DNA of 64,000 bases from Candidatus Omnitrophota bacterium (GTDB taxonomy: Bacteria; Omnitrophota; Gorgyraeia; Gygaellales; Profunditerraquicolaceae). The stretch's first letter is position 1. Every line of letters starts with the position of its first letter. The stretch is taken from assembly GCA_043812955.1 (NCBI GenBank), contig JBDRLN010000012.1, positions 12,749 to 76,748 on the forward strand. Direction: 5' to 3'. Under the pieces are notes generated by a model. That model saw only the letters and a list, made by a program, of their open reading frames with translations. It made no database searches and was not told the DNA's origin. The translations under genes and the position numbers were made by a program. Shown here one piece after another: positions 22,276-48,104 of the stretch.

Positions 22276-22382
22276 TCCACCCTACCCATTCCACCCCGTA
22301 GGTGGGCTCCACCCCGTAGGTGGGCTCCACCTACGGGGTGGACATGAAGGTTTAATATAGCCTAATTTAGCTTATTTGTCAA
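22276..22382 (-). promoter_or_regulatory. pgk promoter region: consensus promoter (TTGACA-17-TATATT) followed by three tandem 15-bp sites CCACCCCGTAGGTGG separated by GCT (third copy inverted); putative repressor operator array
   Basis: Sites at 22291-22305, 22309-22323 and 22327-22341 with a degenerate fourth upstream. The same motif occurs at 55600-55632 (gap) and 63695-63727 (DegT unit). Confidence 0.6.
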
Positions 22383-25519: not shown

Positions 25520-25605
25520 GGGGCTGGTCATCAACAACTAAAATTACTGATTTGTCTTTGATCCTCTACCTCTTTTGAGTTTGACTTTTCAACATATTAG
25601 GGGTG
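25520..25605 (-). pseudogene. ~85-bp duplicated segment: 5' UTR + first 18 codons of the receiver gene at 31703-31790 (ATG mutated to ATC); forms the C-terminal tail of the glgP fusion ORF
   Basis: ggctggtcatcaacaactaaaattactgatttgtctttgatcctctacctcttttgagtttgacttttcaacatattag against 31703-31788: only two mismatches over 82 nt. Confidence 0.7.
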
Positions 25606-28481: not shown

Positions 28482-28597
28482 AATGCCTCCTTGAGCATCG
28501 ACCACAGTTTATGGTCGACTCACCAGACGCCGGTGTTTTTTAACTGGAAATGGCGTAACTCTTTGAAAGATAATGTAATTACGTGTATATGTAAAAA

Positions 28598-29980
28598 TTA
28601 TTCTAAATAAATATCTTTATCGCCCCTGATGCTCCCTCCTTTAATCTTACTGTGCAATTCTTCTTTAGACAACGCAAAAAGAGGGCTGATCTCTACTCTT
28701 ACCTGTGGCTCTACTTTAATTCCTGCATCATTGAGCCAATTTTTATACATGTTACTCAATATCTTTCTAACGGTTTCCGGGGAATCATCGCCCTGTTTAT
28801 TCTTCAGCGGAGCAAATTCTTCTTCGCGGGATATTTCCATACAGCAGGTGTTTTTCGCTAAAGGTATGGCGTCGAAAATAAAGGTTTCAAATTTCCATCC
28901 TTTGATTTCTGTGATTTCATCTTGCGCTCCAAATGAATCTAACATTTTAATAGCATGATGATACGGCAAAGCAAATCCGGACTCATTTAAACGCTGGATG
29001 AAAACTAGAGAAACCATATGTATTGCAGTATTACCCGCCCAATCGCGGATTTGCCCGTTATTATCTAAGATGCAGCGGTTATCCGAGTCTAACTCGCTGT
29101 ACTCAATAACTTTTGCCTTGCCATTTTCAGCGGCAAAGATCCCGACCTTTTCCTCACAGCTTCTGCGGCGCACTATTTTAGTAGACATTTCTGAATCTTC
29201 CATCTTATGATACCCGATGAAAACCGGATCCATTATCTTTACCAAGAGATTGTCGATCTGACAATAGAACAAATCGGAATATCCATCTTCAATTAGTTGT
29301 TTTAACAAACCGGAGTCACGCAACGCCTTGATACAACCACCGTGACCGTTTGGATTAACGAATAGATGAGTTTTGTCCTTTAAAATTAATTTACCATCTA
29401 CAGTTAAAGTAGGAAGCATCTCCTGCTCAAAGAAATGCACCGTTTGCGGATCGAGGGTAAAAAAATTATGGGTTTTAAAAAAGTCTTTTACTTCCGGCAG
29501 CATTTCCGTATCCGTCATTATCAGCAACGGAATAACAACTTTGTAGCGCAAAGATAAAGCCCTGACCGACTCGGCAAAAAGCTGGAATAAAGATTTGTTT
29601 TTTACGGGAGAAATCGGAAACATTCCTTTAGGGCCATTAAAACCTAAACGAGAGCCATGTCCTCCGGCTACGATCAAAACAGCTATCTTGTTCTTGGAGA
29701 TTATTGACTCACCCAATATGCGCGCCTCGTCCCTTTGCACTTGCTCATCAGAATCTTTAGGAATACTAAATATCGGTGATGGATAGATGTCTATGCGATG
29801 TTTGACGGGTAATTTTTGAACGGACGCCTTTTTATAAAGTGAGAAGACGAGCTCAAAATCAAGATTCCCGATTTCACCGATAAACTTTTCTTTCTCCAAA
29901 AGGCTTAACGACTGGTAATGCCTAAGAATATGGGTTTGGTTATATACTTTAAGCAGATTTAAAAAATATTCTTCTTTCAT
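28598..29980 (-). CDS. UDP-sugar pyrophosphorylase of the UDPGP family (UAP1/USP-like, eukaryote-type)
   Basis: VLIVAGGHGSRLGFNGPKGMFPIS matches the UDPGP nucleotide-binding loop (L-x-GG-x-G-T/S-R-L-G); 460 aa. Confidence 0.6.
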   Translation of the reverse strand: MKEEYFLNLLKVYNQTHILRHYQSLSLLEKEKFIGEIGNLDFELVFSLYKKASVQKLPVKHRIDIYPSPIFSIPKDSDEQVQRDEARILGESIISKNKIAVLIVAGGHGSRLGFNGPKGMFPISPVKNKSLFQLFAESVRALSLRYKVVIPLLIMTDTEMLPEVKDFFKTHNFFTLDPQTVHFFEQEMLPTLTVDGKLILKDKTHLFVNPNGHGGCIKALRDSGLLKQLIEDGYSDLFYCQIDNLLVKIMDPVFIGYHKMEDSEMSTKIVRRRSCEEKVGIFAAENGKAKVIEYSELDSDNRCILDNNGQIRDWAGNTAIHMVSLVFIQRLNESGFALPYHHAIKMLDSFGAQDEITEIKGWKFETFIFDAIPLAKNTCCMEISREEEFAPLKNKQGDDSPETVRKILSNMYKNWLNDAGIKVEPQVRVEISPLFALSKEELHSKIKGGSIRGDKDIYLE

Positions 29981-30033: not shown

Positions 30034-30738
30034 TTAATTATTATGAAGACTGTATGTTTTCATTAATAAAGCGTATTTAAAGGCGCCCTTACCCTGTATT
30101 TTAATCGGGACCCGCGGAGTCTCCTTGTTAACCCAGATCTCAAACTCATCGGGGATACTTTTAAAATGGTAAGCCTGGTATTTACCGGCAGGGACCGTTA
30201 TTTCATCTATTGAAACTAATTCTAATCTAAATTCAGCGGGGACTCTTATAGTAAAACTCCAGCCTATTTCAATATCAGGATGCCTGCGTATATAAAAAGG
30301 GATCAGGATTGTGTTCTGGATCGGGCTGCCTGCTTTGGTTATCTGCTCCTTTATTAATTTCACGCCTTTAAACTTCCTTGTTACAACTGTAAATTTCTGC
30401 TGGTCATATTCTTCTGTTATATATTCCTTACTCAAGAACCCGGAGATGGCGCGTTCTATCCTGTACGGCAATAAGCTTTCCGGGTCGCTATAAATTTTCT
30501 CCGTGTCCTCAAAAAAAAATACCTTAGTCTTAAACGTTACTAAATTAACCTTTACCCCGTTTAAATCAACCACCCCAAGGTCGTTATATTCTGATCTTCC
30601 AAAAGGGCTTATAAGATACGTTATGCTTTCTCCTGTATAATCATGACTGCCGGTTTCCCCCTTCAATAAATCATTGCCTGCAAAAACCATTAAAACTATC
30701 GCCGATACAATAAGTATTTTATTGATTTTCATATTCAT
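30034..30738 (-). CDS. secreted protein of unknown function (paralog of 33509..34222)
   Basis: Signal peptide; ~45% identity to the 33509..34222 product along the full length (DYTGE..YLI.P.G.SEY.D.G.VDLNGV...YDPES.LPY..ER...). Confidence 0.6.
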   Translation of the reverse strand: MNMKINKILIVSAIVLMVFAGNDLLKGETGSHDYTGESITYLISPFGRSEYNDLGVVDLNGVKVNLVTFKTKVFFFEDTEKIYSDPESLLPYRIERAISGFLSKEYITEEYDQQKFTVVTRKFKGVKLIKEQITKAGSPIQNTILIPFYIRRHPDIEIGWSFTIRVPAEFRLELVSIDEITVPAGKYQAYHFKSIPDEFEIWVNKETPRVPIKIQGKGAFKYALLMKTYSLHNN

Positions 30739-30776: not shown

Positions 30777-31748
30777 TCATAAGGAGTGACCACCTGCTAT
30801 GGTAAGCCCAAGCAGTTCCTCCACTATTGAAACAAGCAAAGCGGATTGCTTAGAGACGCTATCAATTACTTTTTTTTGTTCCTCATTAAGAGCTCCGTAT
30901 GATCCATCCTGAAGTAATGATAGGTTTCCGTTAATCACTCCCAACGGTGTACGCAGTTTATGCGAAATAAGAGTTAAGGTATCCTGTTTTTGAAATTCTT
31001 CCGTGCGCGATAAGGTAACATCGCGTAAAACAAAAACAGTGCTTAATAGCTCTCCGGCTGAATTCTTTATCACATTCAAATTTACCTCTAAATATAATGC
31101 CTCTGTCGAATCGCTCTTTTGGCGCACTATATCAAATGTTTTATGCGTAATCGCTAAATCCATAAGAGCTTCTTTTTTTATAGAAACAGAATAATTCGTG
31201 AATAACTTTTCGACCAAATTAACATTCGCCGGATCGGTAATATTTAAATACTTTAAAATCTCCGCATTGCAATCTTTAATTAGATAATCCGGGGCGCAGA
31301 TTGCAATGCCATCGCTTACTTTATCAACCACTGCCTTAAATTTCTCCTTTTCCTCTAACTGCCGGCGGTAATAACTTATCTTGAGTATAGACTTAACTCT
31401 TGCTAATAGTTCAACCTTATCAACGGGCTTGGAGATAAAATCATCGCATCCTGCCTCAAGGGCTTTTACCTTGTCTTCGGTCTCCTTAAGTACGGTTACC
31501 ATTACCACCGGGATTTCCTTAGTCTTTTCGTCGGCACGCAAATTCTTGAGCACTTCTATGCCGGACATCTTGGGCATCATTACGTCCAGCAGAATCAGAT
31601 CGATTTGGTTATGGATAAGTTTTTCCAACGCTTCTTCACCGCTTGCCGCCTTGACAATTTCATAACCCTGCGGAACAAGATATGCTTCGAGAAGTTCAAT
31701 GTTTTGAGGCTGGTCATCAACAACTAAAATTACTGATTTGTCTTTCAT
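30777..31748 (-). CDS. receiver domain + PAS-like region + HisKA dimerisation/phosphoacceptor domain, no HATPase_c domain (Spo0B-like phosphotransfer protein or truncated hybrid kinase)
   Basis: Receiver KSVILVVDDQPQN...LILLDVMMPKMSGIEV...SKPV; H-box LISHKLRTPLGVINGN. The protein ends about 60 aa after the H-box and the next gene starts 39 nt later. Confidence 0.75.
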   Translation of the reverse strand: MKDKSVILVVDDQPQNIELLEAYLVPQGYEIVKAASGEEALEKLIHNQIDLILLDVMMPKMSGIEVLKNLRADEKTKEIPVVMVTVLKETEDKVKALEAGCDDFISKPVDKVELLARVKSILKISYYRRQLEEKEKFKAVVDKVSDGIAICAPDYLIKDCNAEILKYLNITDPANVNLVEKLFTNYSVSIKKEALMDLAITHKTFDIVRQKSDSTEALYLEVNLNVIKNSAGELLSTVFVLRDVTLSRTEEFQKQDTLTLISHKLRTPLGVINGNLSLLQDGSYGALNEEQKKVIDSVSKQSALLVSIVEELLGLTIAGGHSL

Positions 31749-31790: not shown

Positions 31791-32156
31791 TCACTTAATA
31801 AACTGACTGACTTCTTTCGCAAAGGTGCGCGTATTTATCGGCTTGCCAATAAATCCGGAATTAGGTATGTCTTCTATCTCTTTTTTTCCTTCCGCCATAA
31901 CCGAAGCAGTCACAAAAACAATTGGGATACCGATTGTCTCTTTGTCTTCGCGCAATATTCTAGCAGCTTCGCTACCACGCATATCCGGAAGCCGCACATC
32001 CATAATTATGATATCCGGTTTTTCTCTCTTGGTAATGGCAATTCCATCGGTAGCATTTTCAGCTTCAAATACTTCAAAGCCAGCGACCTCCAAAAGGTCT
32101 TTTTCCAGCATCAGATTATTTCTATTATCATCGACAATTACAACTTTCTTCTTCAT
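31791..32156 (-). CDS. stand-alone CheY-like receiver (Spo0F-like)
   Basis: KKKVVIVDDNRNN...DIIIMDVRLPDMRGSEA...GKPI; ATG at 32156 preceded by AAAGGAGG. Confidence 0.8.
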   Translation of the reverse strand: MKKKVVIVDDNRNNLMLEKDLLEVAGFEVFEAENATDGIAITKREKPDIIIMDVRLPDMRGSEAARILREDKETIGIPIVFVTASVMAEGKKEIEDIPNSGFIGKPINTRTFAKEVSQFIK

Positions 32157-32157
32157 C

Positions 32158-33453
32158 TCAAACCTCCTTTCTTGAAGCAATGGGCAGAGTAAACTTTACT
32201 CCGGTCCCTTTATTTAGCCCTCCCGATTCTACAGAAAAATTCCCGCCGTGCAGCTCAACCAGTTTTTTCGAGAGCGGCAATCCCAGCCCTGTCCCTTCAG
32301 TTACCCGGGAATACGGAGTATCGACCCGAAAAAACCCTTCAAAGACTTTCCCTATGTTCTCCGGAGCGATACCGACTCCCGTATCCCAAACCTCTACTTC
32401 TATCTTAGAATCAACTTTCTTCGCCCGCATGCCGATTTTACCACCATCAGGGGTAAACTTGACCGCGTTGGAAAGGAGGTTGTAAATTATCTCTTTTATC
32501 TTGAGCTCATCCCCCTCAATATCTGGAAGGTCTTCGGCTATTTCAAGCAATATTTGAAGCTTCTTTTTACTGACCATATCCGCTACCAGCAGTGAAATCT
32601 CATTTAACAGGCTTTTCATAGGTAAGCTGGATAATGCCAGCTTCATCTTTCCGGATTCAACTTTTGCCATATCAAGTATCTGATTTATCAGTAAGAGGAG
32701 GTGTTTTCCGCTAGTTAAAATATTATTAATGTATTTTTTCTGCTTCTCGTTAAGCGGCCCGAAAGTCTCATCCCATAATATCTCAGAGAAACCGTTAATG
32801 GAGTTAAGCGGAGTCCTGAGCTCATGCGACATGTTGGCCAGGAACTCGGATTTTGCCCGGGTGGTACGTTTTAACTCGACGGCCAACTCCTGTAACTCTT
32901 TATGGGTCTTTTCCAGGCCTTTTTCTATCTCCCTGCGCTCGGTGATATCCTCGATAGCCAGAAGGATAACCCGCTCTTTACCCAGCACTTGTTTAATCTG
33001 CCGGGCATTCAGAAGCATTGTGCGCCTGCCAATGGTAGTAAAATCGTGTTCCACCTCATAGTTATCAAAGGTTGCTTTTTGGGGAAGGATGGTTTCCAGC
33101 AGTTCCCGCAGCTTGGGGATATTCCACTGTTTATTGCCCAGGTCATAAATAAGCTGCCCCACGGTCTCTTCAGGCTTTACCTTAAAGAATTCGTAGAAAG
33201 AACGGCTGACGGAGACCACCCTTAAGTCTTGATCCAGAGAAATCAAGGGTTCACGCACAGTGTTGATGATGCTCTCGGCGAATTCGAGGGCACCCTGAGC
33301 TACTCGCTCTGTTTTTTTACTTCCTTTAATTTCTTGGTGAAGCTGCTTGATAGTCTTTCTTCCTGGCACGGTGCGGATTTCTGCCCGATCCTGGATTTTT
33401 TTGGAGAATTTAATATTTTTCTTTTTATCTTTCATGGTTTCACCTCTATTCAT
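32158..33453 (-). CDS. cytoplasmic PAS-domain sensor histidine kinase
   Basis: PAS region (EPLISLDQDLRVVSVSRSFYEFF), H-box MSHELRTPLNSI, N/G1/G2 boxes (NLLSNAVKFT, DTGVGI, GTGLGL); 431 aa. Confidence 0.85.
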   Translation of the reverse strand: MNRGETMKDKKKNIKFSKKIQDRAEIRTVPGRKTIKQLHQEIKGSKKTERVAQGALEFAESIINTVREPLISLDQDLRVVSVSRSFYEFFKVKPEETVGQLIYDLGNKQWNIPKLRELLETILPQKATFDNYEVEHDFTTIGRRTMLLNARQIKQVLGKERVILLAIEDITERREIEKGLEKTHKELQELAVELKRTTRAKSEFLANMSHELRTPLNSINGFSEILWDETFGPLNEKQKKYINNILTSGKHLLLLINQILDMAKVESGKMKLALSSLPMKSLLNEISLLVADMVSKKKLQILLEIAEDLPDIEGDELKIKEIIYNLLSNAVKFTPDGGKIGMRAKKVDSKIEVEVWDTGVGIAPENIGKVFEGFFRVDTPYSRVTEGTGLGLPLSKKLVELHGGNFSVESGGLNKGTGVKFTLPIASRKEV

Positions 33454-33508: not shown

Positions 33509-34222
33509 TTAATTATTGCGGAGACTGTATCCTTTCATTAATAAAGAACAATTAACAATACCTTTAATTTTTATTTTAAGCGGAATTCGCGGGCTGCTTT
33601 TATCGATCCAGATTTCAAACGTATCAGGCACGCTTTTAAAATGGTAAGCTTGGAATTTTCCGCCCGGAACTATTATTTCATCTATTGAAATTAATTCTAA
33701 ATTAAATTTCACAAGTTTAAGTTCATTGAGGACCTTCGCGCTAAATTGCCAGCCTATTTTAAAGTCCGGTTGCTTACGCAGATAAAAAAGAAGCGTGTTC
33801 ATATTTTGAATCGGGCCGTCTGATTTGATTAGCCGCTCCTTTACTAACTTTTTGCCTTTGAACTTTTTTATTACAACTGTAAATTTCTTCTGATCGTATT
33901 CTTCTGTTCTATATTCTTTAATCCAAAGGCCTGAATTAGTGCGCTCTGTTTTATATGGCAACGAGCTTTCCGGATCGTAAAAAATCTTTTCCATAACTTC
34001 GACAAATAATATTTTACTCTTAAGCGTTACCAAATTCGCCGTCACTCCATTTAAATCAACCGTTCCACAATCTGTATATTCCGATTTTCCGATAGGTTCT
34101 ATAAGATATTGGATTCTTTCGCCGGTATAATCATAAATACCAGCTTCTCCCCTTAATAAATTATTATCACAAAGAATAATTAAAATTATTACCGATACAA
34201 TAATTATTATTTTAATTTTCAT
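33509..34222 (-). CDS. secreted protein of unknown function (paralog of 30034..30738)
   Basis: Signal peptide; paralogous as described for 30034..30738. The 3' flanks of both genes also share ttaattatt-gactgtat-tttcattaataaag. Confidence 0.6.
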   Translation of the reverse strand: MKIKIIIIVSVIILIILCDNNLLRGEAGIYDYTGERIQYLIEPIGKSEYTDCGTVDLNGVTANLVTLKSKILFVEVMEKIFYDPESSLPYKTERTNSGLWIKEYRTEEYDQKKFTVVIKKFKGKKLVKERLIKSDGPIQNMNTLLFYLRKQPDFKIGWQFSAKVLNELKLVKFNLELISIDEIIVPGGKFQAYHFKSVPDTFEIWIDKSSPRIPLKIKIKGIVNCSLLMKGYSLRNN

Positions 34223-35538
34223 ATTTTTGGGGTAGTCGTATCTTTAATCTTTAGGGGTTCTGTTTTCTGAAAACCGCCTTCGAGCACTGATGTAACTATG
34301 GATTTAATATAATTGCTGCAAATATCCCACTCCGCTTTCATGCGCCATTGAATGAGATACCGCGAACTATTTTTTTTGCCCAGAGAAACAGCTCTTCTTG
34401 ATCTAATTTTATCGTAAATCTCTAACGTATGTTTGGCGGCAGACATAATCGGGTATTTCTGTACCGTCATTCTTATGATCTGTTTTATGGTTTGTAACTC
34501 TTCAGGGGTTCGAGATAAAGTCCAGATAAGGGCATCAACAAAACTTTGCTGATCCATCTCATTGAGCAATCGCCCGTTGTGATAATCAACTACTACTTCC
34601 CGCGCTCCCGGAGCATTCAGCGCCACCACCGGAACTCCCGCTGCCATGGCTTCAATAAGAACTATTCCTTGTGTTTCGCTTAATGAAGCAAATGCGAAAA
34701 CATCCATGGCAAAATAAGCATCAACCAAATCCTGATAACGTAAAACCCCGGTTAAATGTAATCTTTTTTCAAGGCCAGCCTGTTCAAAGGTATCCTTGAT
34801 CAAATTTTGCGATGGGCCAAGGCCCACGATTAGAGCATGTACCTTTGGATCTTTTTTTAATAATTCAACCAGACAATTTGTCAGGAATACCAAATTCTTT
34901 TCCGGAGCCAGCCGACCGGCATGGCCAACCACTAAGGCATCGGGAGGGATCTGATGCTGCTCTCGAAAAGCAATTCCATCGCCTTTTGAAAAACGTTGTG
35001 CATCTATCCCTGTCGGAATAACCTCCATGGGAGTCTTAACGCCTCTTTTAAGTAAAATATCCTGTACGCTTTCGCTAGGCACGATTACCTGATCTACCAA
35101 ATTTGAATATCCGGCAGCAAGCTTGACCATAAATCTTTTCACTCCCTCATTTTGAACCGGCCAATCATGCACGTACTGCTCAAACATGCAGTGATAAGTA
35201 AATACAAGCGGTATGGCGTGCTGTCGACTAAGGCGTAGAGCAAAATCTCCCATGAAAAACGGGCCGTGGCTATGCACCATATCCGGCACAAATTCTTTCA
35301 TGTATCGCTTTAAGAGCCCAGAAATCGGAAAGTTAACGGAAAAAACAGTCCCGCCAAATTTTTGGAAAGCCGGAATCCGAATTACGCCTTGCTCCTCTTG
35401 CGGCGCGCCCCCAAAGGCCGGAGTAACAATCAAAACCTCATGCCCCAAACTTCTAAATGCCTCGCTAAAAGAATAAACCGATTGCTCTAATCCTCCTACC
35501 ATTGGAAAATAGGTATTCGTCATCATGAGAATATTCAT
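34219..35538 (-). CDS. family 4 glycosyltransferase (GT-B, diacylglycerol/sugar transferase-like)
   Basis: N-terminal MTNTYFPMVGGLEQSV and C-terminal E-x7-E region (ETQGIVLIEAMAAGVPVV) typical of GT4; 439 aa. Confidence 0.75.
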   Translation of the reverse strand: MNILMMTNTYFPMVGGLEQSVYSFSEAFRSLGHEVLIVTPAFGGAPQEEQGVIRIPAFQKFGGTVFSVNFPISGLLKRYMKEFVPDMVHSHGPFFMGDFALRLSRQHAIPLVFTYHCMFEQYVHDWPVQNEGVKRFMVKLAAGYSNLVDQVIVPSESVQDILLKRGVKTPMEVIPTGIDAQRFSKGDGIAFREQHQIPPDALVVGHAGRLAPEKNLVFLTNCLVELLKKDPKVHALIVGLGPSQNLIKDTFEQAGLEKRLHLTGVLRYQDLVDAYFAMDVFAFASLSETQGIVLIEAMAAGVPVVALNAPGAREVVVDYHNGRLLNEMDQQSFVDALIWTLSRTPEELQTIKQIIRMTVQKYPIMSAAKHTLEIYDKIRSRRAVSLGKKNSSRYLIQWRMKAEWDICSNYIKSIVTSVLEGGFQKTEPLKIKDTTTPKI

Positions 35539-37016
35539 TATTTATCTCCGCCTACCGTTGGACCGGCTTTTAGCTCTATAAGCGCTTTTCTCGCTGCCAC
35601 GCATATTGCTTCGTAAGAATTTTGCGCACCCATGGCCAACCCTTCCTTTTCTAGATCCTCAGTGAGAAGCGGCTTGCCGAATCTGACTCTAATCGGGTGG
35701 AGTTTGGGATACTTTGCCATACTGGGCCAGGCCTCATAAGCCCCTTCTATAGCTACAGGCACAAGCAACGCCCCTGTCTCCTTGGCTAAGATACCGAACC
35801 CTTTTTTAAATTTTCCGATTTTGCCGGTAGTACTACGCAACCCTTCCGGGAAAAAACACAAACCTTTACCGCGTTTTAATACTAAATAAGCGCTACGTAG
35901 CGCCTCCAGAAAATGCGTTGAATAATCAAAGGGAATAAGTCTCATCATCTTTACAAGATTCCTTAATAGGCGAGATTTTATAAACGGCCTAAAAAAATAC
36001 GGTATGAATAAGAAGTAAAAAAGCTGAAACACTGGCCTACGCGGCAGACTTGCGTTAATGGCCGGCCCATCAAGATCACTCGCGTGATTGGGATATAGAA
36101 TATAAGCTCCGACTTTTGGCACATTCTCTGCTCCTTCTGCCTTAATTCTGAAAAACAATCTACAAATCAAATAATCTATAGCTGTTACGCTAAATCGTAA
36201 CAGCCAGGCGGAAAAACCGGTACTGAATTCCAGCGCCCCCAAATGTTCTTCTTTCGGCAGGACTCGTAAATGTTTTTTCCAGTAGCCTGGTTCTAAAGGT
36301 AAACTTTTATCCTCCTCAGGGCGGATGCCTTTAGCTCCTTTCAACGCATCTGTTATTCCCAGGATAAGATCCTTTACAATAAAGGCTCTCGAGATTGCCT
36401 CGTCTTTTATATCAGCGTTAAAAGCTAACTCAAGGCACGAAGCCAGCTCTACCCTGCCTAATGAATCAATCCCTAAATCCAGCTCTAAAGAATCCTCGAG
36501 TATTATCGGTCTTCTAATACCAGACATCTTCTTTAAACATTCCGAAATTTTTATGCCGGTCTCGGATTCTATCAATAGATGGTCCGCAGCCGAAAGCTCT
36601 TCTAATACCGGGAGAGCGCCTTCTATTCCTGCTCTCACCCTAGGTTCATATATTTCTTTAACCGCATGTCTATCTAACTTGCCAAACAGATCATGCGGTA
36701 GCTCCTCAAGCGTAACAGTAAAACCTTTAAGCCTTTTATGAATAGGAAGCGATGGTGAGGCATTATCAAATCTCTCCTTAATGGCTAAATGCAGATTCAC
36801 TGAGGCGAATTTCCTGAATTCATCAAGATCCGGCTGAATGACAGCCCAAAGAACTTTCGATTTCCCTGCGCCTCCCATTCCGGAGACTGTAAAAACGCAC
36901 ATCTCCTTGACGGGTCCAGCCTTACTATAGAACTCCTCAATCTCTTCCGGGTAAATTTTCTTCTCCAAATTAACTATGATAAAATCTTTTAACCTAATCC
37001 TAAGGTCTTTTATCAT
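35538..37016 (-). CDS. acyl-carrier-protein-like domain fused to lysophospholipid acyltransferase (PlsC family), preceded by a vestigial AMP-binding C-terminal subdomain; N-truncated paralog of 50567..53311
   Basis: Phosphopantetheine site LDLGIDSLGRVEL; PlsC H-x4-D motif YPNHASDLDGP and FPEGLRS; N-terminus aligns to the last ~100 aa of the AMP-ligase domain of the 914-aa paralog. Confidence 0.7.
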   Translation of the reverse strand: MIKDLRIRLKDFIIVNLEKKIYPEEIEEFYSKAGPVKEMCVFTVSGMGGAGKSKVLWAVIQPDLDEFRKFASVNLHLAIKERFDNASPSLPIHKRLKGFTVTLEELPHDLFGKLDRHAVKEIYEPRVRAGIEGALPVLEELSAADHLLIESETGIKISECLKKMSGIRRPIILEDSLELDLGIDSLGRVELASCLELAFNADIKDEAISRAFIVKDLILGITDALKGAKGIRPEEDKSLPLEPGYWKKHLRVLPKEEHLGALEFSTGFSAWLLRFSVTAIDYLICRLFFRIKAEGAENVPKVGAYILYPNHASDLDGPAINASLPRRPVFQLFYFLFIPYFFRPFIKSRLLRNLVKMMRLIPFDYSTHFLEALRSAYLVLKRGKGLCFFPEGLRSTTGKIGKFKKGFGILAKETGALLVPVAIEGAYEAWPSMAKYPKLHPIRVRFGKPLLTEDLEKEGLAMGAQNSYEAICVAARKALIELKAGPTVGGDK

Positions 37017-39760
37017 TTATCCGCCTCATATTTCAATTCCAGAGAATTTGTTGCAGGTGGAATTCTTACGCTCTTTAAACCAGGCAATTGAATATCAATC
37101 GGGGGTTCTTTTGCAAACCAAAGTCCGTGCCATTCGACCAGGATATTTTGCCCCTGGGGTTTTAGGGAAATTTGAATATCTCCAAAACTTGTCGGCGCAG
37201 GCCCAAACGCAATCGTTTGATTTTTCGTAAGCCAGACCAGCGGTATTCCCGAACATAAAATTAATCGGTTGCCTTCTTCGCGCACAAAACAATTTCTTAT
37301 CATCATTACCCATTCTGCTGCGGCCCAGACTTGCTGCCCGTCTCCCATACATCCTCCGCCCGTACGCGGATGTATTGACTCAGGCCATTGTCCCGTGGGT
37401 GAAGCCAATTTTGCCACCGCTGTCATCAAACCAAAATACCTGGGATCCCCCGCACGCAAAAGCACTTGAGCCAAATGCAATGTAAGGTAAGTATTTATCC
37501 CTGAATGGGTCATGTCATGGAAAAATCCTCCGTGAACCAAACAATTTTTCATTAAAAAATCAGCTGTGTCTAAAATCCTTGGATCGTTCTCTTTAAAAAC
37601 ACGGAGCGGATAACTGGCAGCCAAAGAGCCGATCGCTCCTGAATCCAAACGCCGATAAGGAGAAGCTGGCATCGCAGGCCTTTTTAAACGAACATCTACT
37701 TGCTTTAAACTTTGATTAATACTCTCCAGTAGCGCGTTTGACTCCTTTTCAAACAAATTAGCCTCATCATTATCCTTGTAAGCAGCACACATTAAGGCCG
37801 CTGCTTTTAATCCCTCAACACCCCAAAAATCATCCCAATAATAAAAATCATTCGGCCCCAAATGCTCGGCGCTAAATCCCGAAGGTAATAAGCCTGCATG
37901 GGGAGATTGTAAATTACTAGGCAAACGCTTTTTATAAATCCACTTACCCGCCTTAGTAATTGATTCTTTCCACTCTCTTGGCGGAATATTTCCTGACATC
38001 TGGCAATACTGACGCATAATCCATAAGGCCTCGCCGTTAGAATCCCATTCCCCTTCCTGAGAGAGGAAATAACCTTGGGCTGTCTGACGGGCGCGGAAAC
38101 AATCCAAGGAGCGTCGAACACGCTCCTTGAACCCGACACATAACAAGGCATTTAATATGAAAGCGGCATCGCGAAACCAAAACTGCCGGTAAATATAAGG
38201 CCCAGGATAAACTTCCTTGGGAGAATGCAAAACCATGGTGTAGATAGCGGCTTCGTAAAGAAACTTAAAAAATTCATCAGGAATCTGCAAAGAACATACG
38301 CCTTGAAGACTTTTCTTCCATGCTAGTTTCGCAGTTTCTTGATAGCTCAAAAGGGATTTTTTTTCATATTTGTTTTTCGTTAAAGGTACGGACATAGTAA
38401 TTTCTTCTGATTTATTCGCCTCCAATATATAAACGGCTGCTGCGCTGGCCATACCCACTTTACATGAAATTTCTTTTTCATACATTCGCCCGCCGCAAGA
38501 ACCAACAGCGGGCTCAGTATTCCGCCCAAGGGACTCCTGACTTAATCCCTGATGGGCTCCATTTTCCTTGCAAGACAATCGGCTATAAACATCGCCTCGA
38601 TGATAATCCGAAAATACCCACTGATCCGGAGGCTTATCAAAATAGACAAAATTTTCTCGATTTACTTGCCAGCCTAACGAATCTTCAAAGAGTGTAATAC
38701 TATTTATAAAGCTCACCCCTTCGGGGTTATAAGGCCTGAGAGAAACAATTAACCGCGCCTTGACGCCAGCAGTTCCTGTGATTTTAACCTGGCAAAGAGG
38801 CGCTTGAATCGAACCTATAACTTGCGCTTCCAACCGGAGTTTTAATTGATCCAGACTTGATTCTGTAATCACACAAAGATTGTTATTCATAATCATCTTT
38901 TGTGATACACTTGGGCTACGCGACGGGATTAATGGCTCTCCCTCTTCTGGGATAATCCAAACATCAATAGACCAGCTATCGTAATAGGGAGTAACCAGGC
39001 CATGAGGGTCTACAAGAGAAAATTCGGCACTGTCGGGAACACCCAAAGCTGTCCAATTTCTATGGGTGAGATTAATTTGGGTCATAGAAAAAGAACGGGG
39101 GATAAACGCAACGTTACGAGGGTTATATTGACATTCGACCCAATACGGCCAGATCCAATCCAGGTTATGCTGGATGGCTAAACTATTTATCAAACCACGA
39201 GCGTGCAAGACAGCACCTAAACGCAACAGCTCCATCGGGACTGCCACCTCTGAGGGTTGGGCAAAATTCTGTAATTGAGAAAGAAGCTTAGTAGGATCTA
39301 AAAAACCGTGCTTACGCGCAGCATCTCTTACTAAAAATCTCCACGGGAACCATTTCCACCACACAAAATAACCTCCCTCTTTCTTTAAGGTTCTAAAAAC
39401 CCACCATTTAAAGCAACTATAGGTAAACAAGCCCGTTAATATCGTGGCAATGATTAAAGCTAATAAAACAGCACCGTGCCAAATTCTAAGAATAGTTTGA
39501 TTTGTTAAAACATTAATGCCTAAGGCTAAAGAATTAATCAGTGCATAGCGGCCGACTTCAGCAAACGATAACGGCTTGTTATATTTAAACGTCCAAAATT
39601 TAATAAGAAAAAACCCGGCAATACCCGCGCACGTAAACGAGATGCCTTTGGATAAGCTAAAGGGAAGAAAATGAAATAAAATATAATAAATACTAAAGTC
39701 TGTTGCATTGATAATAGCCCCCGCAATTAAAAACCGGATTATCTCTTTTTTAGTATTCAT
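37013..39760 (-). CDS. GtrA-like membrane anchor fused to a GH15-like (alpha/alpha)6 glycoside hydrolase domain
   Basis: N-terminal RFLIAGAIINATDFSIYYIL is a GtrA-family motif with 4 TM helices; the GH15-type signature YIYRQFWFRDAAF is in the C-terminal half; 915 aa. Confidence 0.55.
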   Translation of the reverse strand: MNTKKEIIRFLIAGAIINATDFSIYYILFHFLPFSLSKGISFTCAGIAGFFLIKFWTFKYNKPLSFAEVGRYALINSLALGINVLTNQTILRIWHGAVLLALIIATILTGLFTYSCFKWWVFRTLKKEGGYFVWWKWFPWRFLVRDAARKHGFLDPTKLLSQLQNFAQPSEVAVPMELLRLGAVLHARGLINSLAIQHNLDWIWPYWVECQYNPRNVAFIPRSFSMTQINLTHRNWTALGVPDSAEFSLVDPHGLVTPYYDSWSIDVWIIPEEGEPLIPSRSPSVSQKMIMNNNLCVITESSLDQLKLRLEAQVIGSIQAPLCQVKITGTAGVKARLIVSLRPYNPEGVSFINSITLFEDSLGWQVNRENFVYFDKPPDQWVFSDYHRGDVYSRLSCKENGAHQGLSQESLGRNTEPAVGSCGGRMYEKEISCKVGMASAAAVYILEANKSEEITMSVPLTKNKYEKKSLLSYQETAKLAWKKSLQGVCSLQIPDEFFKFLYEAAIYTMVLHSPKEVYPGPYIYRQFWFRDAAFILNALLCVGFKERVRRSLDCFRARQTAQGYFLSQEGEWDSNGEALWIMRQYCQMSGNIPPREWKESITKAGKWIYKKRLPSNLQSPHAGLLPSGFSAEHLGPNDFYYWDDFWGVEGLKAAALMCAAYKDNDEANLFEKESNALLESINQSLKQVDVRLKRPAMPASPYRRLDSGAIGSLAASYPLRVFKENDPRILDTADFLMKNCLVHGGFFHDMTHSGINTYLTLHLAQVLLRAGDPRYFGLMTAVAKLASPTGQWPESIHPRTGGGCMGDGQQVWAAAEWVMMIRNCFVREEGNRLILCSGIPLVWLTKNQTIAFGPAPTSFGDIQISLKPQGQNILVEWHGLWFAKEPPIDIQLPGLKSVRIPPATNSLELKYEADK

Positions 39761-39781
39761 ACTTATGTAAAATTTATCTTC

Positions 39782-41077
39782 CTAAGACGATGGGGCCTGC
39801 AACAACCCATGCTTGTCAGAGTTTAGCCTTATCCATTGCTTAATAATAAAATAACCCATGAAGCGAAAGATAGCATTTCTTAAGCGAAGCTTAAAGAGCA
39901 GTGAAATTGACCTGCGAAGAGAATAGAATTTAGTATATGCCTTAAGCACGCAAAGTTGTAATTCTTGGGCAGATAATAATTTTGGCTTAAAAACAATATG
40001 TTGGCCGTCATAAAAGCTCCAATCTTTGCTGAAAATCCTTTTTTGAGCTTCCAGTTCCTGATAAACTTTAGTCCCGGGAAAAGGAGTGAGGACTGCCATT
40101 TGAATGGTATCTATTTTATGCTTTATAGCAAACCTCAAGGTTTCCCAAACCGTATTTTTGTTATCATCTTCTCCTCCCAAAACAAACATGCCGTGGATTT
40201 TTATTCTTTTTTGATGAAAAGAGCGAATAGCATTAACAATTTCTTCGATGGTTTGGTTCTTTTGATAAGCCTTAAGAGTCCTGGGATTAATAGATTCAAA
40301 GCCTATACAGACAAGTTTACATCCTGCCCGAGCCATAAGATTTAACAGCCCATTATCTTTGGCAACGTCACAACGCACCTGGCAGCTCCAATTACTTATT
40401 TTATGTTTTAACAAAAGTTCCAATAAGCGCTTTGTACGTTTAGTATGCGCGGTAAAATTATCATCGCAGAAAAAGAAGGATTTTGTATTCCTGGATTTCA
40501 TTTCATTGACAATATTTTCAGCGCTGCGGAAACGGTATTTGCGGCCGAACATCTTTGTGACTGAACAAAAACTGCAATCAAAAGGACAGCCCCTGGAGGT
40601 AGAAATAGGGTGCAATGGAGAAGGCAGCTTAAATCCTTTAATCAATGAAAAATCCGGGATTGGCAGGATATCCAGGTCCGCAACCGGCTTACCAAAAACA
40701 ATCGGCTCTGTCCTTCTACCCTCAACCACATCAATGATAACCTCCTCAGCCTCTCCTACCACAACTTGTCTGGCAAACTCCAGCGCCTCATCAGGCATAA
40801 GACTTGCATGGACTCCGCCTATGATCACTTTTTCTTTAAGGAATCTTTTGGCTATTTCATAACCGCGCTTGGCTGTTGGAGTCAATATAGAAATACCGAT
40901 AAGATCCGCCTTTAAACTCGCATAATCAGGCGCAAGGATATTTTCGTTATATACCTCGACCTCATGACCCCTATTTTTTAAAATAGTCCCCAGATAAACA
41001 GGGCCCAATAAGGGCATGGGTATTTTACTATAGACATTTGCCTCGCACGCGCGAGGCTCAATAAGCACGATTTTCAT
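39782..41077 (-). CDS. B12-binding domain radical SAM enzyme (class B)
   Basis: N-terminal cobalamin-binding Rossmann-like domain, then CPFDCSFCS (CxxxCxxC) and a TIM-barrel region; 431 aa. Confidence 0.8.
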   Translation of the reverse strand: MKIVLIEPRACEANVYSKIPMPLLGPVYLGTILKNRGHEVEVYNENILAPDYASLKADLIGISILTPTAKRGYEIAKRFLKEKVIIGGVHASLMPDEALEFARQVVVGEAEEVIIDVVEGRRTEPIVFGKPVADLDILPIPDFSLIKGFKLPSPLHPISTSRGCPFDCSFCSVTKMFGRKYRFRSAENIVNEMKSRNTKSFFFCDDNFTAHTKRTKRLLELLLKHKISNWSCQVRCDVAKDNGLLNLMARAGCKLVCIGFESINPRTLKAYQKNQTIEEIVNAIRSFHQKRIKIHGMFVLGGEDDNKNTVWETLRFAIKHKIDTIQMAVLTPFPGTKVYQELEAQKRIFSKDWSFYDGQHIVFKPKLLSAQELQLCVLKAYTKFYSLRRSISLLFKLRLRNAIFRFMGYFIIKQWIRLNSDKHGLLQAPSS

Positions 41078-41165
41078 TTTTATAGTTTATTAGAGTGACC
41101 GTCTCTATATCAACTAACGCCCCCGCAAATCATTGGTGGGGGGCGCTAGCAAGAATATAATCCTC

Positions 41166-41285
41166 TTAAGACTTCATGATGTTTCGGCCTGCTCGACGAT
41201 TTTTAACCATTCCCTTACCGCCAGGACTCTTCTTAGCACGCCTCTTGGCTGCAGTCATTCTGCCTCCCCTGCTTTTCTTTGCCAT
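41166..41285 (-). CDS. 39-aa highly basic small protein (not in ORF track)
   Basis: MAKKSRGGRMTAAKRRAKKSPGGKGMVKNRRAGRNIMKS preceded by a strong SD (GGAGGTGATTGAAAAATG) and sited just downstream of a terminator-like hairpin. Confidence 0.4.
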   Translation of the reverse strand: MAKKSRGGRMTAAKRRAKKSPGGKGMVKNRRAGRNIMKS

Positions 41286-41316
41286 TTTTCAATCACCTCC
41301 TTCCGCAAAAAGCGTA

Positions 41317-41345
41317 ACACCGGACGATCCGATACGGCCGGGTGT
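41317..41345 (-). terminator. hairpin (ACACCGG...CCGGGTGT) followed by a T-run on the minus strand; putative terminator of the patatin gene
   Basis: Minus strand: ACACCCGGCCGTATCGGATCGTCCGGTGTTACGCTTTTTGCGG. Confidence 0.35.
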
Positions 41346-41348
41346 ATT

Positions 41349-42560
41349 TTATTTACCCTCTGCCACAAGTCCGGGCGGAGCCTTGTGCCACTTATACCCA
41401 ACTGCTGCGTCGTCATATCCGCGCTTAAAAAGCCTCTTCATTTCCTGCTTATCAAACATCTCTTTTTGATTAGGCTTAAAATCATCTGGAATATACGCTA
41501 AATTATAATCCCATCCTCTTTCCTTCGCGAATGCGTAAATCCTGTAAGTGTCCCCGGCCATTTTTGACGCTCCATTGGTTTCAATCAAACGCGAAGTTAT
41601 CGCCGGCAGATTTACTTCTATCTGTTTGGAGTGCGGCGACATATAACAACAATTTAGGATATAAACCCGAGTCCTGAATCCTTCCTGATTGATCTCGGAT
41701 GATTGAACCGTAGATCCCCCCCCTTCCATTAGCTGATGAATATAAAAAAGCCCGCCAATAACCCCGCCGTCAGCATGCATCTCGTCATAACGCCTACCGC
41801 CGGCTTCAACTTGAAAATAGACCGGAGGAAGCATAGCTGAAAACGAGCAGGAGGCCAAAATTATTTTGCGGAACATTTTCATTGAATCGAGGCTTCCTCG
41901 GGATGCCAGCGCTCCCATGTCCCATATAACAAACCCCTGGGCGTCAAGATCCGAGGTTCCTACATATAGCCTGCGCCCTTTCCTATGCTCTTCGGCGATC
42001 CGCGCCATTAAATCCTCATCCACAATATCATCGATTTTTTTAGCGAACAGGGCTGAGCTATACACAGAATCTCCGAACAGAATGCCAAAAATACTCTTTG
42101 GTCTCACAACATCTTTGGTCGATATTGAGGTAAACAGGTCCGCAAGCCGGTCTTCATAGTCTTTTCCTGAAAACGCGGCAAGAGCGATGATCGATCCACT
42201 GGAATAGCCTGTAACTATCTTAAATACCGGCCGAGAGCCTTCCTTTGACCACCCGTGCAATAGCCCTATACCGTAAGCGCTGTTGGATACACCGCCTCCG
42301 ATTATAAGCACAGGGTACGTCTTGATACCGTCAACTAAATAGTCTGATTTGCCTTCTTCTTTAAAGGAATCTACCAGGCTCTGCCGCATCAAATAGAAAG
42401 AATCGGGCTTACCTTCATAGTAGCGTATATCCGGCATACCGACAACGACGGCCTTGCCAACAAGATTTTCCGGTACAGCATGTCGCACATGGGCACACCC
42501 TGATGCTGCGAAAACACAGGTTATTATTATAAATAAATGATATAATTTCTTTTGTCTCAT
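41349..42560 (-). CDS. secreted/lipoprotein patatin-like phospholipase (paralog of 46827..48104)
   Basis: Signal peptide + Cys; GGGVSNSAYGIG oxyanion motif and GYSSGS (G-x-S-x-G) nucleophile motif. The C-terminus LFKRGYDDAAVGYKWHKAPPG is shared with the paralog. Confidence 0.75.
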   Translation of the reverse strand: MRQKKLYHLFIIITCVFAASGCAHVRHAVPENLVGKAVVVGMPDIRYYEGKPDSFYLMRQSLVDSFKEEGKSDYLVDGIKTYPVLIIGGGVSNSAYGIGLLHGWSKEGSRPVFKIVTGYSSGSIIALAAFSGKDYEDRLADLFTSISTKDVVRPKSIFGILFGDSVYSSALFAKKIDDIVDEDLMARIAEEHRKGRRLYVGTSDLDAQGFVIWDMGALASRGSLDSMKMFRKIILASCSFSAMLPPVYFQVEAGGRRYDEMHADGGVIGGLFYIHQLMEGGGSTVQSSEINQEGFRTRVYILNCCYMSPHSKQIEVNLPAITSRLIETNGASKMAGDTYRIYAFAKERGWDYNLAYIPDDFKPNQKEMFDKQEMKRLFKRGYDDAAVGYKWHKAPPGLVAEGK

Positions 42561-46826: not shown

Positions 46827-48104
46827 TTAATCCTCCGCCGCATATCCGGGTGGTGTTTTATGCCACTCATATCCATTGAACGCATCATCATATCCGCGCT
46901 TAAAGAGCCTCTGCATTTCTTTTGTATCAAAAAACTCTTTTGGATTAGACTTAAAATCGGCCGGAATATACGCTAAATTGAAATCCAGGCCCTTTCTCTT
47001 CACAAAAGCATAGATCCTGTAGATATCCCCGCCAAACGCCGCTGCCTGCAATGTCTCAAGAGAACGCAGGCCTATACCTAGCAGACTGTCTTTTACCCGT
47101 TGCCTAATCGGCGACATGTAACTAGTACTTAAAACATAAATCTGCGTCCGGTATTTTGAGGGATCGATACCAGAAACATTAGCCGCTCCTTCCATATTTT
47201 TTGTTAATCGGTCGATATAAAATATCTGCCTCATCGACCCGCCATCGACATGCATCTCATCATAAAGCTCTCCGGTTGCAGAAGAAACTTTGAAATACAC
47301 CGGAGGAAACATCATGGGCATGGCGCTTGAGGCCAGAAGTATTTTCTGGAACATTCTCACCGAATCGGCCCCGCCCTTACACGCAAGCGCCCCCATATCC
47401 CAAACAACAAACTCCTGCGCGTCAAGATTTACGGTCCCTATAAAGAGCCTGCGGCCGCGCCTATGTTCTTTGGCAACCTTTTCTATTAATTTCACATCCA
47501 CAATGGCCGAAACCTTTTTAACCAGCGGAGCGGGGCTCATAAAGGAGTTTCCGAATAAAATGCTGAATAAATTATTTTGTTTCATTATATCTTTGGTTGA
47601 AATCGTGGTAAAAAATTTCTCAAGCTGGCCGTCATAGTCTTTTCCTAAAAAAGCATAGCACGCTATGATCGCTCCGCTGCTGACGCCTGTAATTATCTTA
47701 AAAAGCGGCCGCGAGCCTTTCCTAGACCACCCCACTAAGAACCCTGCGCCATAGGCGCCCTTAGGCCCGCCGGCTGAGACGGCTAGCACAGGATAGGTCT
47801 TTCTACCAAGCAGATCGGTGGGATAATCAAAATTAGCTTCTTCTTTAAATGAATCCGCTAAGCTCTTCTGCATAGCGATCGGATCGGGATCATCAATATC
47901 AACACGGATATCCGGCATGCCGCTCATAGTAACTTTTCCGGCAGAATCTGGCGGCACGGCGTTGCGTGGCCGCATGCTCACACACCCCTGGATTGCTAGC
48001 ACGCTCATCAATAAAATAAATATAAAAAAACTGACATTAATTTTGTTCTTGTGGCTCTCGCGCATTAACCCCCACTCTCCTTTTATCGCTTCCGCTCTCG
48101 GCAT
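46827..48104 (-). CDS. secreted patatin-like phospholipase (paralog of 41349..42560)
   Basis: SAGGPKGAYGAGFLVGW oxyanion motif and GVSSGA nucleophile motif. The DGG catalytic Asp region (MHVDGGSM) and the LFKRGYDDAFNGYEWHKTPPG C-terminus are conserved. Confidence 0.75.
   Translation of the reverse strand: MPRAEAIKGEWGLMRESHKNKINVSFFIFILLMSVLAIQGCVSMRPRNAVPPDSAGKVTMSGMPDIRVDIDDPDPIAMQKSLADSFKEEANFDYPTDLLGRKTYPVLAVSAGGPKGAYGAGFLVGWSRKGSRPLFKIITGVSSGAIIACYAFLGKDYDGQLEKFFTTISTKDIMKQNNLFSILFGNSFMSPAPLVKKVSAIVDVKLIEKVAKEHRRGRRLFIGTVNLDAQEFVVWDMGALACKGGADSVRMFQKILLASSAMPMMFPPVYFKVSSATGELYDEMHVDGGSMRQIFYIDRLTKNMEGAANVSGIDPSKYRTQIYVLSTSYMSPIRQRVKDSLLGIGLRSLETLQAAAFGGDIYRIYAFVKRKGLDFNLAYIPADFKSNPKEFFDTKEMQRLFKRGYDDAFNGYEWHKTPPGYAAED

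Follow-up and report, generated by a model that had tools for sequence, protein, structure and literature searches.

Do five genes on one strand of an Omnitrophota contig encode a single pathway for an unusual membrane lipid and, if not, which of them belong together? The question concerns a stretch of 64,000 nucleotides of contig JBDRLN010000012.1 (Candidatus Omnitrophota bacterium, assembly GCA_043812955.1), here called the window. A first-pass annotation had proposed that the genes for a GT4 glycosyltransferase, an acyltransferase with an acyl carrier protein domain (ACP-PlsC), a 915-amino-acid (aa) protein with a GtrA-type membrane domain, a B12-dependent type of radical S-adenosylmethionine (SAM) enzyme and a patatin-like phospholipase form a glycolipid or lipid-tailoring cluster. 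All five genes exist on the minus strand, with open reading frame (ORF) ends that match the proposed interval (34219–42560) exactly, and Pfam agrees with the domain calls apart from the glucoamylase-like domain, which is visible at fold level only; a sixth gene, encoding a DUF3108 protein, had been left out (Table 1). We conclude that the functional unit consists of the GtrA-fused protein (GtrA::X, with X denoting its large C-terminal module), ACP-PlsC, GT4 and optionally the DUF3108 protein, and not of the five-gene set. It is the Omnitrophota variant of a widespread, uncharacterized module whose invariant core is X plus GT4. What we consider its best explanation, although its chances lie slightly below even, is a module for the synthesis and turnover of a membrane glycolipid.

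The unit was delimited by comparison of 170 related loci, using tblastn and neighbor clustering. Ten of these came from exact protein look-up and 80 genome loci were retrieved with an alignment of X; orthologs of the radical SAM protein were represented by 80 metagenomic loci (64–97% identity). Where X is encoded as a stand-alone protein, it is directly followed by GT4 (42–56% identity) in 50 of 64 loci, and this pair spans the Gamma-, Alpha- and Deltaproteobacteria, Planctomycetota, Nitrospinota, Riflebacteria and Omnitrophota. The fusion GtrA::X was found in 22 loci including the window, all within the window's Omnitrophota clade (defined by X at least 70% identical), and GT4 adjoins X in every one of them whose contig continues. 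ACP-PlsC (485–515 aa) sits between X and GT4 in 17 Omnitrophota loci, with L016 as the exception. The expectation that all five genes would be conserved together in relatives was thus borne out for GtrA::X, ACP-PlsC and GT4, but not for the radical SAM and patatin genes. In the window, the radical SAM, GtrA::X, ACP-PlsC and GT4 genes are tightly packed (21-bp gap, 4-bp overlap and 1-bp overlap, respectively). The DUF3108 gene, which shares 4 bp with the GT4 stop and has the same place in L002, L012, L015 and L018, probably closes the operon.

Outside the GtrA-fused clade, the partners of the core differ. A DedA/VTT membrane protein is encoded immediately 5′ of stand-alone X in 35 loci, and a protein of ~800 aa with Phosphodiest (PF01663) and EEP (PF03372) domains directly behind GT4 in 33, so that a common stand-alone form is dedA-X-GT4-phosphodiesterase with gaps below 50 bp. 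This four-gene form occurs in Proteobacteria, Planctomycetota, Nitrospinota and Riflebacteria (L052, 7282–13989; L070, L079, L087 and about 30 more loci). Marinobacter loci have dedA-X without an adjacent GT4. The Omnitrophota locus L026 (4647–13057) encodes on one strand X, DedA, GT4, GtrA, a TreT-like GT4, EEP and a cardiolipin-synthase-like PLD protein, and its free-standing GtrA looks like the unfused state of GtrA::X. No GtrA gene was found directly 5′ of the stand-alone Omnitrophota X in L027–L030, where genes for a response regulator, PEBP, Hsp20 and a rubrerythrin-VIT protein take this place. In the alphaproteobacterial L040, a full-length AMP-binding-ACP-PlsC gene lies directly 5′ of X-GT4.

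Residues 1–128 of the 915-aa protein are a GtrA-type membrane domain of four helices (49.6 bits against the Pfam PF04138 cut-off of 26.1; helices 3–28, 34–57, 66–93 and 98–128 according to AlphaFold2), and X comprises residues ~131–915. The exact look-up found no identical sequence on record for the whole protein, and the X region had zero matches in Pfam, NCBIfam or PDB sequence searches. Among 1.84 billion cluster representatives (clusters at 50% identity), 2,213 relatives were found at E ≤ 1e-3, of which 447 also pass E ≤ 1e-30; the majority are stand-alone proteins of 750–800 aa. Within the Omnitrophota X is conserved at 70–92% identity, and identity to the Proteobacteria is ~50%. Ten diverse homologs also lack a Pfam family; a single one of them reaches E = 0.057 to the GH15 model PF00723.

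The AlphaFold2 model of the protein, made with a 98-sequence alignment, is of high predicted quality (predicted local distance difference test, pLDDT, 91.6; predicted template-modeling score 0.85) and contains the four transmembrane helices, linker helices, a β-sandwich, an (α/α)6 barrel and a C-terminal β-sandwich. X accordingly begins with a Trp-rich amphipathic segment (WWKWFPWRFLVR), which is followed by the β-sandwich (237–459), the barrel (470–825) and the C-terminal β-sandwich. In a Foldseek search against the PDB, the best matches of X were the glycoside hydrolase (GH) family 15 glucodextranase 1ug9 (4.6e-18) and then the glucoamylase 1lf6 (1.2e-17), followed in order by GH94 phosphorylases, GH15 dextran dextrinase, GH65, cyclic glucan synthase, GH63, GH116 and GH176; all share ~11% identity with X. 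A profile search against the PDB gave faint matches (GH176 7VMA, E = 0.03; GH15 1lf6, 0.053; GH15 1ug9, 0.1), which align over the YxxxWxRD and WDxxG motifs of X. Of the initial description as a glucoamylase-like (α/α)6 domain, the fold is therefore supported by AlphaFold2 and Foldseek, but membership in GH15 is not, as there is no hit to PF00723. We therefore prefer to treat X as a family of its own, not described so far, of inverting-α-glucosidase-like enzymes.

Among 98 X sequences D643 and E794 are invariant (98/98 each), and D531 (96/98) and E632 (93/98) vary little. In the predicted structure D531 is located at the start of helix α2, E632 in the α5-α6 loop, D643 at the start of α6 and E794 in the α11-α12 loop; judged by these positions, D531 would be the subsite −1 "fixer" Asp, and E794 would occupy the position of the GH15 general base. 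Two enzyme groups were compared in this respect by means of the family descriptions for GH15 (PMC12446779) and GH176 (preprint bioRxiv 10.64898/2026.07.01.735942). Like GH15 glucoamylase and glucodextranase (1lf6, 1ug9) and dextran dextrinase (9ju0; PMC12446779), X combines an N-terminal β-sandwich with an (α/α)6 barrel, and has the YxxxWxRD fixer motif at the α2 start and the invariant Glu in the α11-α12 loop. It differs from them in the low identity given above, in lacking a Pfam GH15 match, in its invariant Asp643, which may replace the general-acid Glu of GH15, and in being predicted as membrane-tethered and cytoplasmic with an extra C-terminal β-sandwich. GH176 (7VMA; the Arthrobacter α-1,2-glucosidase of the same preprint) and clan GH-G (GH63, GH37) share the β-sandwich and (α/α)6 barrel, and their pattern of Asp fixer, Asp acid and Glu base fits D531, D643 and E794 of X. 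However, 7VMA, the best PDB profile match, remains non-significant and ranks only 48th in Foldseek, and X is bigger and membrane-associated.

No signal peptide is seen in the stand-alone X proteins, whose N-terminus is formed by a conserved Trp/Arg-rich segment, MxWxKWLPWRFIVR (core MxWxKWLPWRF). We take this segment for an interfacial helix at the membrane; the window protein has it right behind its fourth GtrA helix. From the positive-inside rule we infer that the catalytic domain faces the cytoplasm. X is thus predicted to be an inverting α-glucosidase-like enzyme at the cytoplasmic face. A GtrA domain might translocate a lipid-linked sugar, but the one fused to X may act only as an anchor.

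The constant partner of X is GT4. For the GT4 of the window, the top NCBIfam model is the α-monoglucosyl-diacylglycerol synthase Mgs (NF049988), with 140.1 bits against a cut-off of 400 and a full-length alignment (residues 1–382 against model positions 1–391 of 398). Of the X-partner GT4s scanned, all 38 match this model, whose best E-value (1.2e-49) is lower than that of any other family, and none is an equivalog. Other high-ranking models are the GlcNAc-phosphatidylglycerol synthase and the IagA/BgsA glycolipid-anchor glycosyltransferases, and the IMG name of the Methylobacter ortholog is 1,2-diacylglycerol 3-α-glucosyltransferase. GT4 resembles Mgs of Acholeplasma and Firmicutes and IagA/BgsA in its GT4 fold and EX7E motif (E288...E296). 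It differs from Mgs in a conserved C-terminal extension and in being paired with X and, because it scores so far below the Mgs cut-off, it represents a distinct subfamily. Judged by these matches it is probably a retaining, lipid (diacylglycerol-type) α-glycosyltransferase, and a lipid acceptor appears likely from the best match, the KEGG Orthology name in IMG and the lipid-gene neighbors. The latter include, among relatives of the X-GT4 pair, DedA, GtrA, an Aas-like acyltransferase, phosphodiesterase/EEP and cardiolipin-synthase-like genes. Together with the Mgs matches of GT4 and the predicted membrane tether of X, this neighborhood upholds the general glycolipid or membrane-lipid theme that had been assigned to the locus.

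The second enzyme of the Omnitrophota variant, ACP-PlsC (492 aa), combines the remnant of an ANL C-terminal subdomain with an ACP domain (PP-binding, 20.8 bits with a cut-off of 20.8) and a PlsC/LPLAT acyltransferase domain (PF01553, 57.6 against 23). Its sequence shows the HX4D motif as H-ASDL-D and the DSL serine within LGIDSLG. A full-length Aas-like paralogue of 914 aa is encoded elsewhere in the window (Table 1). ACP-PlsC is 39% identical to residues 442–906 of this protein and has no AMP-binding match in Pfam; since the alignment covers only these residues, it lacks the adenylation core and, on this comparison, is a truncated paralogue shortened at its N-terminus. The full-length enzyme is a possible trans-acting acyl loader. 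With E. coli Aas and the acyl-[ACP]-phospholipid O-acyltransferase family, ACP-PlsC shares an LPLAT domain with HX4D and a carrier domain, and the full-length form, adenylation-ACP-LPLAT, is likewise encoded in the window. In contrast to E. coli Aas, ACP-PlsC has no adenylation core, and its domain order is unlike that of Aas.

From these parts the following scheme can be drawn up, every step of which is inferred. The cytoplasmic GT4 would transfer an α-linked hexose, probably glucose from UDP-glucose, to diacylglycerol or a related membrane lipid, and a UDPGP gene lying 4 kb downstream could provide for the UDP-glucose. X would be kept at the cytoplasmic side of the membrane by its fused GtrA helices together with the Trp-rich interfacial helix, and would work as an enzyme of the inverting α-glucosidase type with Asp531 as fixer, Asp643 or Glu632 as acid and Glu794 as base. 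It might trim, remove or transglucosylate α-glucosyl head groups and in this way set the amount of glycolipid or the length of its head group. The truncated ACP-acyltransferase might acylate a lyso-form or the sugar, and the 914-aa paralogue, for instance, might load its ACP in trans. GtrA in the window, and DedA in other phyla, could anchor the enzyme and/or move the lipid across the membrane. In those phyla the phosphodiesterase/EEP protein could furthermore yield diacylglycerol from phospholipids, in analogy to the PlcP-Agt system (PMC4796936, PMC8528852).

PlcP-Agt lipid renovation of marine and soil Proteobacteria (PMC4796936, PMC8528852) is one close parallel. It likewise has an operon-encoded GT4 that makes glycosyl-diacylglycerols, its logic is the replacement or remodeling of membrane lipids, and in relatives of the locus a phosphodiesterase gene, as possible source of diacylglycerol, adjoins GT4. 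Yet PlcP is a metallophosphoesterase, whereas the relatives use Phosphodiest+EEP, and the PlcP-Agt system has no glycosidase-like protein, DedA, GtrA or ACP-acyltransferase. The searchable literature yielded no account of X, nor one of an operon of the form DedA-X-GT4-phosphodiesterase. A bolder reading, which we regard as doubtful, is that X founds a new GH family of membrane-anchored, cytoplasm-facing glycolipid α-glucosidases or transglucosidases and, with the Mgs-like GT4, a lipid-translocating DedA or GtrA and a phospholipase-C-like phosphodiesterase/EEP, forms an unrecognized, phylum-spanning lipid-renovation operon as an alternative to PlcP-Agt. In the Omnitrophota this operon would have been rewired through the fusion of GtrA with X and the gain of a self-contained ACP-acyltransferase, and acylated glucolipids may result.

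Several points weigh against a glycolipid module. The encoding of a synthase and a hydrolase for one bond in one operon seems futile unless the system is regulated or X is a transglycosidase. The catalytic acid of X could be either E632, as in GH15, or D643, as in GH63, GH37 and GH176, and the RefSeq name of the X that partners GT4 in Methylobacter is "hypothetical protein". GT4 is not an Mgs equivalog, given its 140 bits against the cut-off of 400, and its acceptor could be a non-lipid. The DedA and phosphodiesterase/EEP partners were not found in this window. For GtrA and DedA, a link to polyprenyl-phosphate carriers has better documentation than one to glycerolipids. Finally, the UDPGP and glycogen phosphorylase genes nearby also fit a metabolism of soluble α-glucans or α-glucosides.

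The last point leads to an unlikely alternative explanation, in which GT4 makes a cytoplasmic α-glucoside or an α-glucan primer and X is a hydrolase of the GH15 or GH176 type. The product would be a solute resembling trehalose, kojibiose or glucosylglycerol, and the membrane tether and lipid neighbors would be secondary. The nearest folds and profiles of X agree with this, as they include glucoamylase, glucodextranase, the trehalase-containing GH15, GH65 and the α-1,2-glucosidase of GH176, and so do the marine or halophilic lifestyles of many hosts (Marinobacter, Thiohalophilus, Thioalkalivibrio), the TreT-like GT4 in L026, and the UDPGP and receiver-fused glycogen phosphorylase genes 4–8 kb downstream, which are syntenic in L002 and L017. 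Against a soluble product speak the conservation of the Trp-rich interfacial N-terminus of X, the fusion of GtrA to it in 22 loci and the adjacent DedA in 35, and the genes for ACP-PlsC or Aas-like acyltransferases, phosphodiesterase/EEP and a cardiolipin-synthase-like protein that share operons with it; moreover, the closest models of GT4 are lipid glycosyltransferases and not TreT or sucrose-phosphate synthase.

The membrane partners raise a different alternative, to which we assign a still lower probability. GtrA and DedA families are implicated in the flipping or recycling of polyprenyl phosphates. In a polyprenyl-phosphate-linked glycan pathway, GtrA or DedA would handle undecaprenyl-phosphate sugars, GT4 would build a lipid-linked oligosaccharide or an envelope glycan, and X would trim it, comparable to BcsZ, PslG or the GH94 domain of cyclic glucan synthase. 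Besides this background on the two membrane-protein families, the presence of cyclic glucan synthase (8rf0) among the Foldseek matches of X and the rule that exopolysaccharide systems pair a synthase with a hydrolase speak for such a pathway. However, 80 loci yielded no gene for an initiating phosphoglycosyltransferase, a polymerase, Wzx/Wzy or export, the module is only 2–4 genes long, and the acyltransferase and phosphodiesterase partners suit glycerolipids better. Synthesis and turnover of a membrane glycolipid hence remains the reading that we prefer for the unit.

It remains to be asked what the radical SAM gene contributes. Its product is of the class B type by its B12-binding-type domain (PF02310, 43.4 bits against 32.1), with cobalamin binding predicted, and it contains the radical SAM domain (PF04055, 85.8) with CxxxCxxC at C164/C168/C171 as well as an amphipathic C-terminal helix. 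The scores against NCBIfam models, given here with the respective cut-offs, are 139/481 for BchE, 138.5/577.6 for HpnJ, 117/360 for TIGR04072 and 100.6/650 for HpnR. The AlphaFold2 model (pLDDT 81.7) has a generic class B fold, with AprD4 (template-modeling score 0.71), MgmA, TsrM, OxsB and CysS as nearest Foldseek matches. AprD4 itself makes no use of B12. Lipid enzymes are not among the nearest solved folds, and Tes is absent from the top 50 Foldseek matches. The protein thus has in common with AprD4, MgmA and TsrM, and with the lipid enzymes HpnJ, HpnR, GrsA/B, Tes and Mss, an N-terminal Rossmann-like B12 domain, a radical SAM TIM barrel and the CxxxCxxC motif, but it is a member of none of the named families HpnJ, HpnR, BchE and TIGR04072, and in contrast to the lipid radical SAM enzymes its gene has a conserved linkage to cold-shock genes instead of lipid genes. 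Mss, the bacterial synthase of membrane-spanning lipids, which has been reported in some Omnitrophota, was considered as a possible identity of the protein; a review postulates for Mss a Tes-like mechanism with an auxiliary [4Fe-4S] cluster.

The gene is well conserved in the Omnitrophota, although its position varies. It adjoins X in just 2 of the 80 ortholog loci, both belonging to the window's own lineage (L091, 93%, and L092, 97%, the latter being identical with L002), and only one of 20 GtrA-X loci (L002) has it nearby. By contrast, a cold-shock-domain gene lies on the same strand within 700 bp 5′ of the radical SAM gene in 51 of the 67 loci with enough upstream sequence (L005, L006, L009, L010 and 47 of L093–L170, each with one or two CspA-like genes), which is a strong linkage within the phylum. 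Recurrent genes on the 3′ side are mnmA, nadA and an RluA-type pseudouridine synthase gene, a set that probably stems from one sub-lineage. A 789-aa neighbor behind the radical SAM ortholog in L005 was considered as a GtrA-less X and dismissed, as BLASTP showed no homology. Copies of a conserved, very basic 39-aa ORF (77–83% identity) are found 5′ of GtrA-X in L001 (9712–9828), L002 (3126–3245) and L031 (962–1072), and in L001 the ORF directly precedes GtrA-X, whereas in the window the radical SAM gene stands between them, which suggests a local insertion of the latter.

We therefore regard the radical SAM gene as a separate, cold-shock-linked gene of the Omnitrophota that landed 5′ of X only in a narrow lineage. 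The first-pass annotation had placed the enzyme within a lipid pathway and had named lack of co-conservation as grounds against this placement; the gene is not co-conserved with X, its scores are far below all cut-offs, and the proposal does not hold for it. There is a slim chance that all five genes nevertheless form one pathway, in which the enzyme would tailor the lipid tail by methylation or C–C coupling, or the sugar head group by a ring contraction like those of HpnJ or calditol synthase. A gap of 21 bp separates the end of the gene from X, and a promoter-like site lies upstream of it, so that the two are probably co-transcribed, and for this reason a recruited role in the module retains that slim chance. 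The same gene order recurs in L091 and L002, the best NCBIfam matches include HpnJ and the lipid-associated TIGR04072, the protein has the amphipathic C-terminal helix and, speculatively, the cold-shock linkage could fit an anaerobic adjustment of membrane fluidity. These points are outweighed by the rarity of the linkage to X, by the cold-shock and mnmA, nadA or pseudouridine synthase neighbors in other loci, by scores 3–6-fold under the cut-offs of all lipid radical SAM families, by AprD4, MgmA and TsrM as nearest solved folds, and by the displaced 39-aa ORF.

The patatin gene, too, stands apart. The call as a patatin phospholipase was confirmed by the Pfam match (61.3 bits against 27.7) and, by eye, the intact GxSxG (G-Y-S-S-G) and DGG (H-A-D-G-G) motifs; the protein also has, by eye, a signal peptide ending in ASGC and is a probable lipoprotein. 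The five genes do lie on the same strand, but a spacer of 270 bp with a terminator-like hairpin (41335–41317), the 39-aa ORF and a promoter-like site separates patatin from the radical SAM gene, so that they are not simply consecutive; promoter and terminator counts of the scan were no different from those of shuffled sequence, and these sites are weak hints only. Of 15 informative GtrA-X loci, about 7 have an ortholog on the 5′ side, often at a distance that is filled by genes for small membrane proteins (present in L002, L003, L011, L012, L015, L019 and L022; absent from L001, L004, L013, L017, L020, L021 and L025), which does not bear out its inclusion in the gene set. Patatin is a facultative neighbor of lipid-turnover flavor and no core member. 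Another patatin-like protein, also a probable lipoprotein, is encoded 4 kb upstream (46827–48104, minus strand) and shares 52% identity with the first. Between 42619 and 43454 (minus strand), 5′ of patatin, lie four tiny genes for a PLDc_N protein (55 aa), a DUF1328 protein (54 aa), an entericidin-like protein (53 aa) and a Transgly_assoc/GlsB-like protein (87 aa); the set is also present in L002 and partly in L001, L003 and L004.

Table 1. Features of the locus and related genes in the window
Feature	Coordinates	Strand	Length and basis
Patatin-like phospholipase	42560..41349	minus	403 aa; Pfam Patatin 1.9e-16
Basic small ORF	41166-41285	minus	39 aa; sequence MAKKSRGGRMTAAKRRAKKSPGGKGMVKNRRAGRNIMKS; strong ribosome-binding site
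B12-radical SAM protein	41077..39782	minus	431 aa; Pfam Radical_SAM 4.9e-24, B12-binding 3.6e-11
GtrA-fused protein (GtrA::X)	39760..37013	minus	915 aa; Pfam GtrA 5.4e-13, residues 9-122
ACP-PlsC	37016..35538	minus	492 aa; Pfam Acyltransferase 1.5e-15, PP-binding exactly at cut-off
GT4	35538..34219	minus	439 aa; Pfam Glyco_transf_4 3.1e-35, Glycos_transf_1 1.3e-32
DUF3108 protein	34222..33509	minus	Pfam DUF3108 2.5e-08; N-terminal signal or anchor sequence
PAS histidine kinase	33453..32158	minus	Pfam; conserved downstream of the module
Single-domain response regulator (probable)	about 32180..31791	minus	between PAS kinase and receiver-HisKA hybrid
Receiver-PAS-HisKA hybrid, no HATPase domain	31748..30777	minus	Pfam
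UDPGP-type UTP-glucose-1-phosphate uridylyltransferase	28598..29980	minus	Pfam UDPGP 1e-40; syntenic in L002
Full-length Aas-like enzyme	50567-53311	minus	914 aa; AMP-binding, ACP and PlsC domains (Pfam, NCBIfam)

Homologs of the locus proteins at 70–97% identity all come from metagenome-assembled genomes of Candidatus Omnitrophota. In the window's clade, the module is usually followed by the PAS kinase, response regulator and receiver-HisKA genes, and sometimes by DUF3108; the order of the two-component genes is shared with L002, L003, L004, L015 and L017. Two DUF3108 paralogues (30034–30738 and 33509–34222, minus strand), which are 55–60% identical to each other's orthologs, bracket these genes and may be envelope proteins; a PDB sequence search with the DUF3108 protein gave no relative of solved structure. 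Further downstream, the UDPGP enzyme, which is of the eukaryotic type, is a possible supplier of UDP-glucose for GT4 and is counted here as genomic context, not as a member of the module. Its gene adjoins that for a glycogen/carbohydrate phosphorylase of 979 aa with an N-terminal receiver domain (25566–28505, minus strand), an arrangement kept in L002 and L017. A 766-aa protein (22362–24662, minus strand) has a spermine/spermidine-synthase domain in its central part only and is unusually long for this family. The group of an MGDG-synthase-like GT28 with DegT and HAD proteins, which had been reported elsewhere in the window, checks out at 60873–63672 (minus strand): the GT28/MGDG_synth protein (369 aa) has the diglucosyl-diacylglycerol synthase UgtP as best match (174 bits, below the cut-off), and it is followed by genes for a HAD phosphatase (184 aa) and for a DegT aminotransferase (379 aa), with PriA adjoining.

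Had the link to the radical SAM gene held up, the locus could have served as a candidate case of new chemistry on lipid tails from an uncultured phylum, but the link did not hold up. The lead that is left is an abundant, unannotated family of membrane-associated glycosidase-like proteins tied to an Mgs-like GT4 and commonly to DedA. To our knowledge, DedA and GtrA proteins have no defined lipid substrates in most bacteria, and an operon that ties them to a specific pair of glycosyltransferase and glycosidase offers a handle on these substrates. As the carriers include cultured organisms (Methylobacter, Marinobacter, Thiohalophilus and Bowmanella), the function is directly testable. Omnitrophota have small cells, and some are thought to be host-dependent. 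For them, a regulated glycolipid module that has two-component genes and genes for secreted patatin lipases as neighbors may be relevant to how the cell envelope is remodeled.

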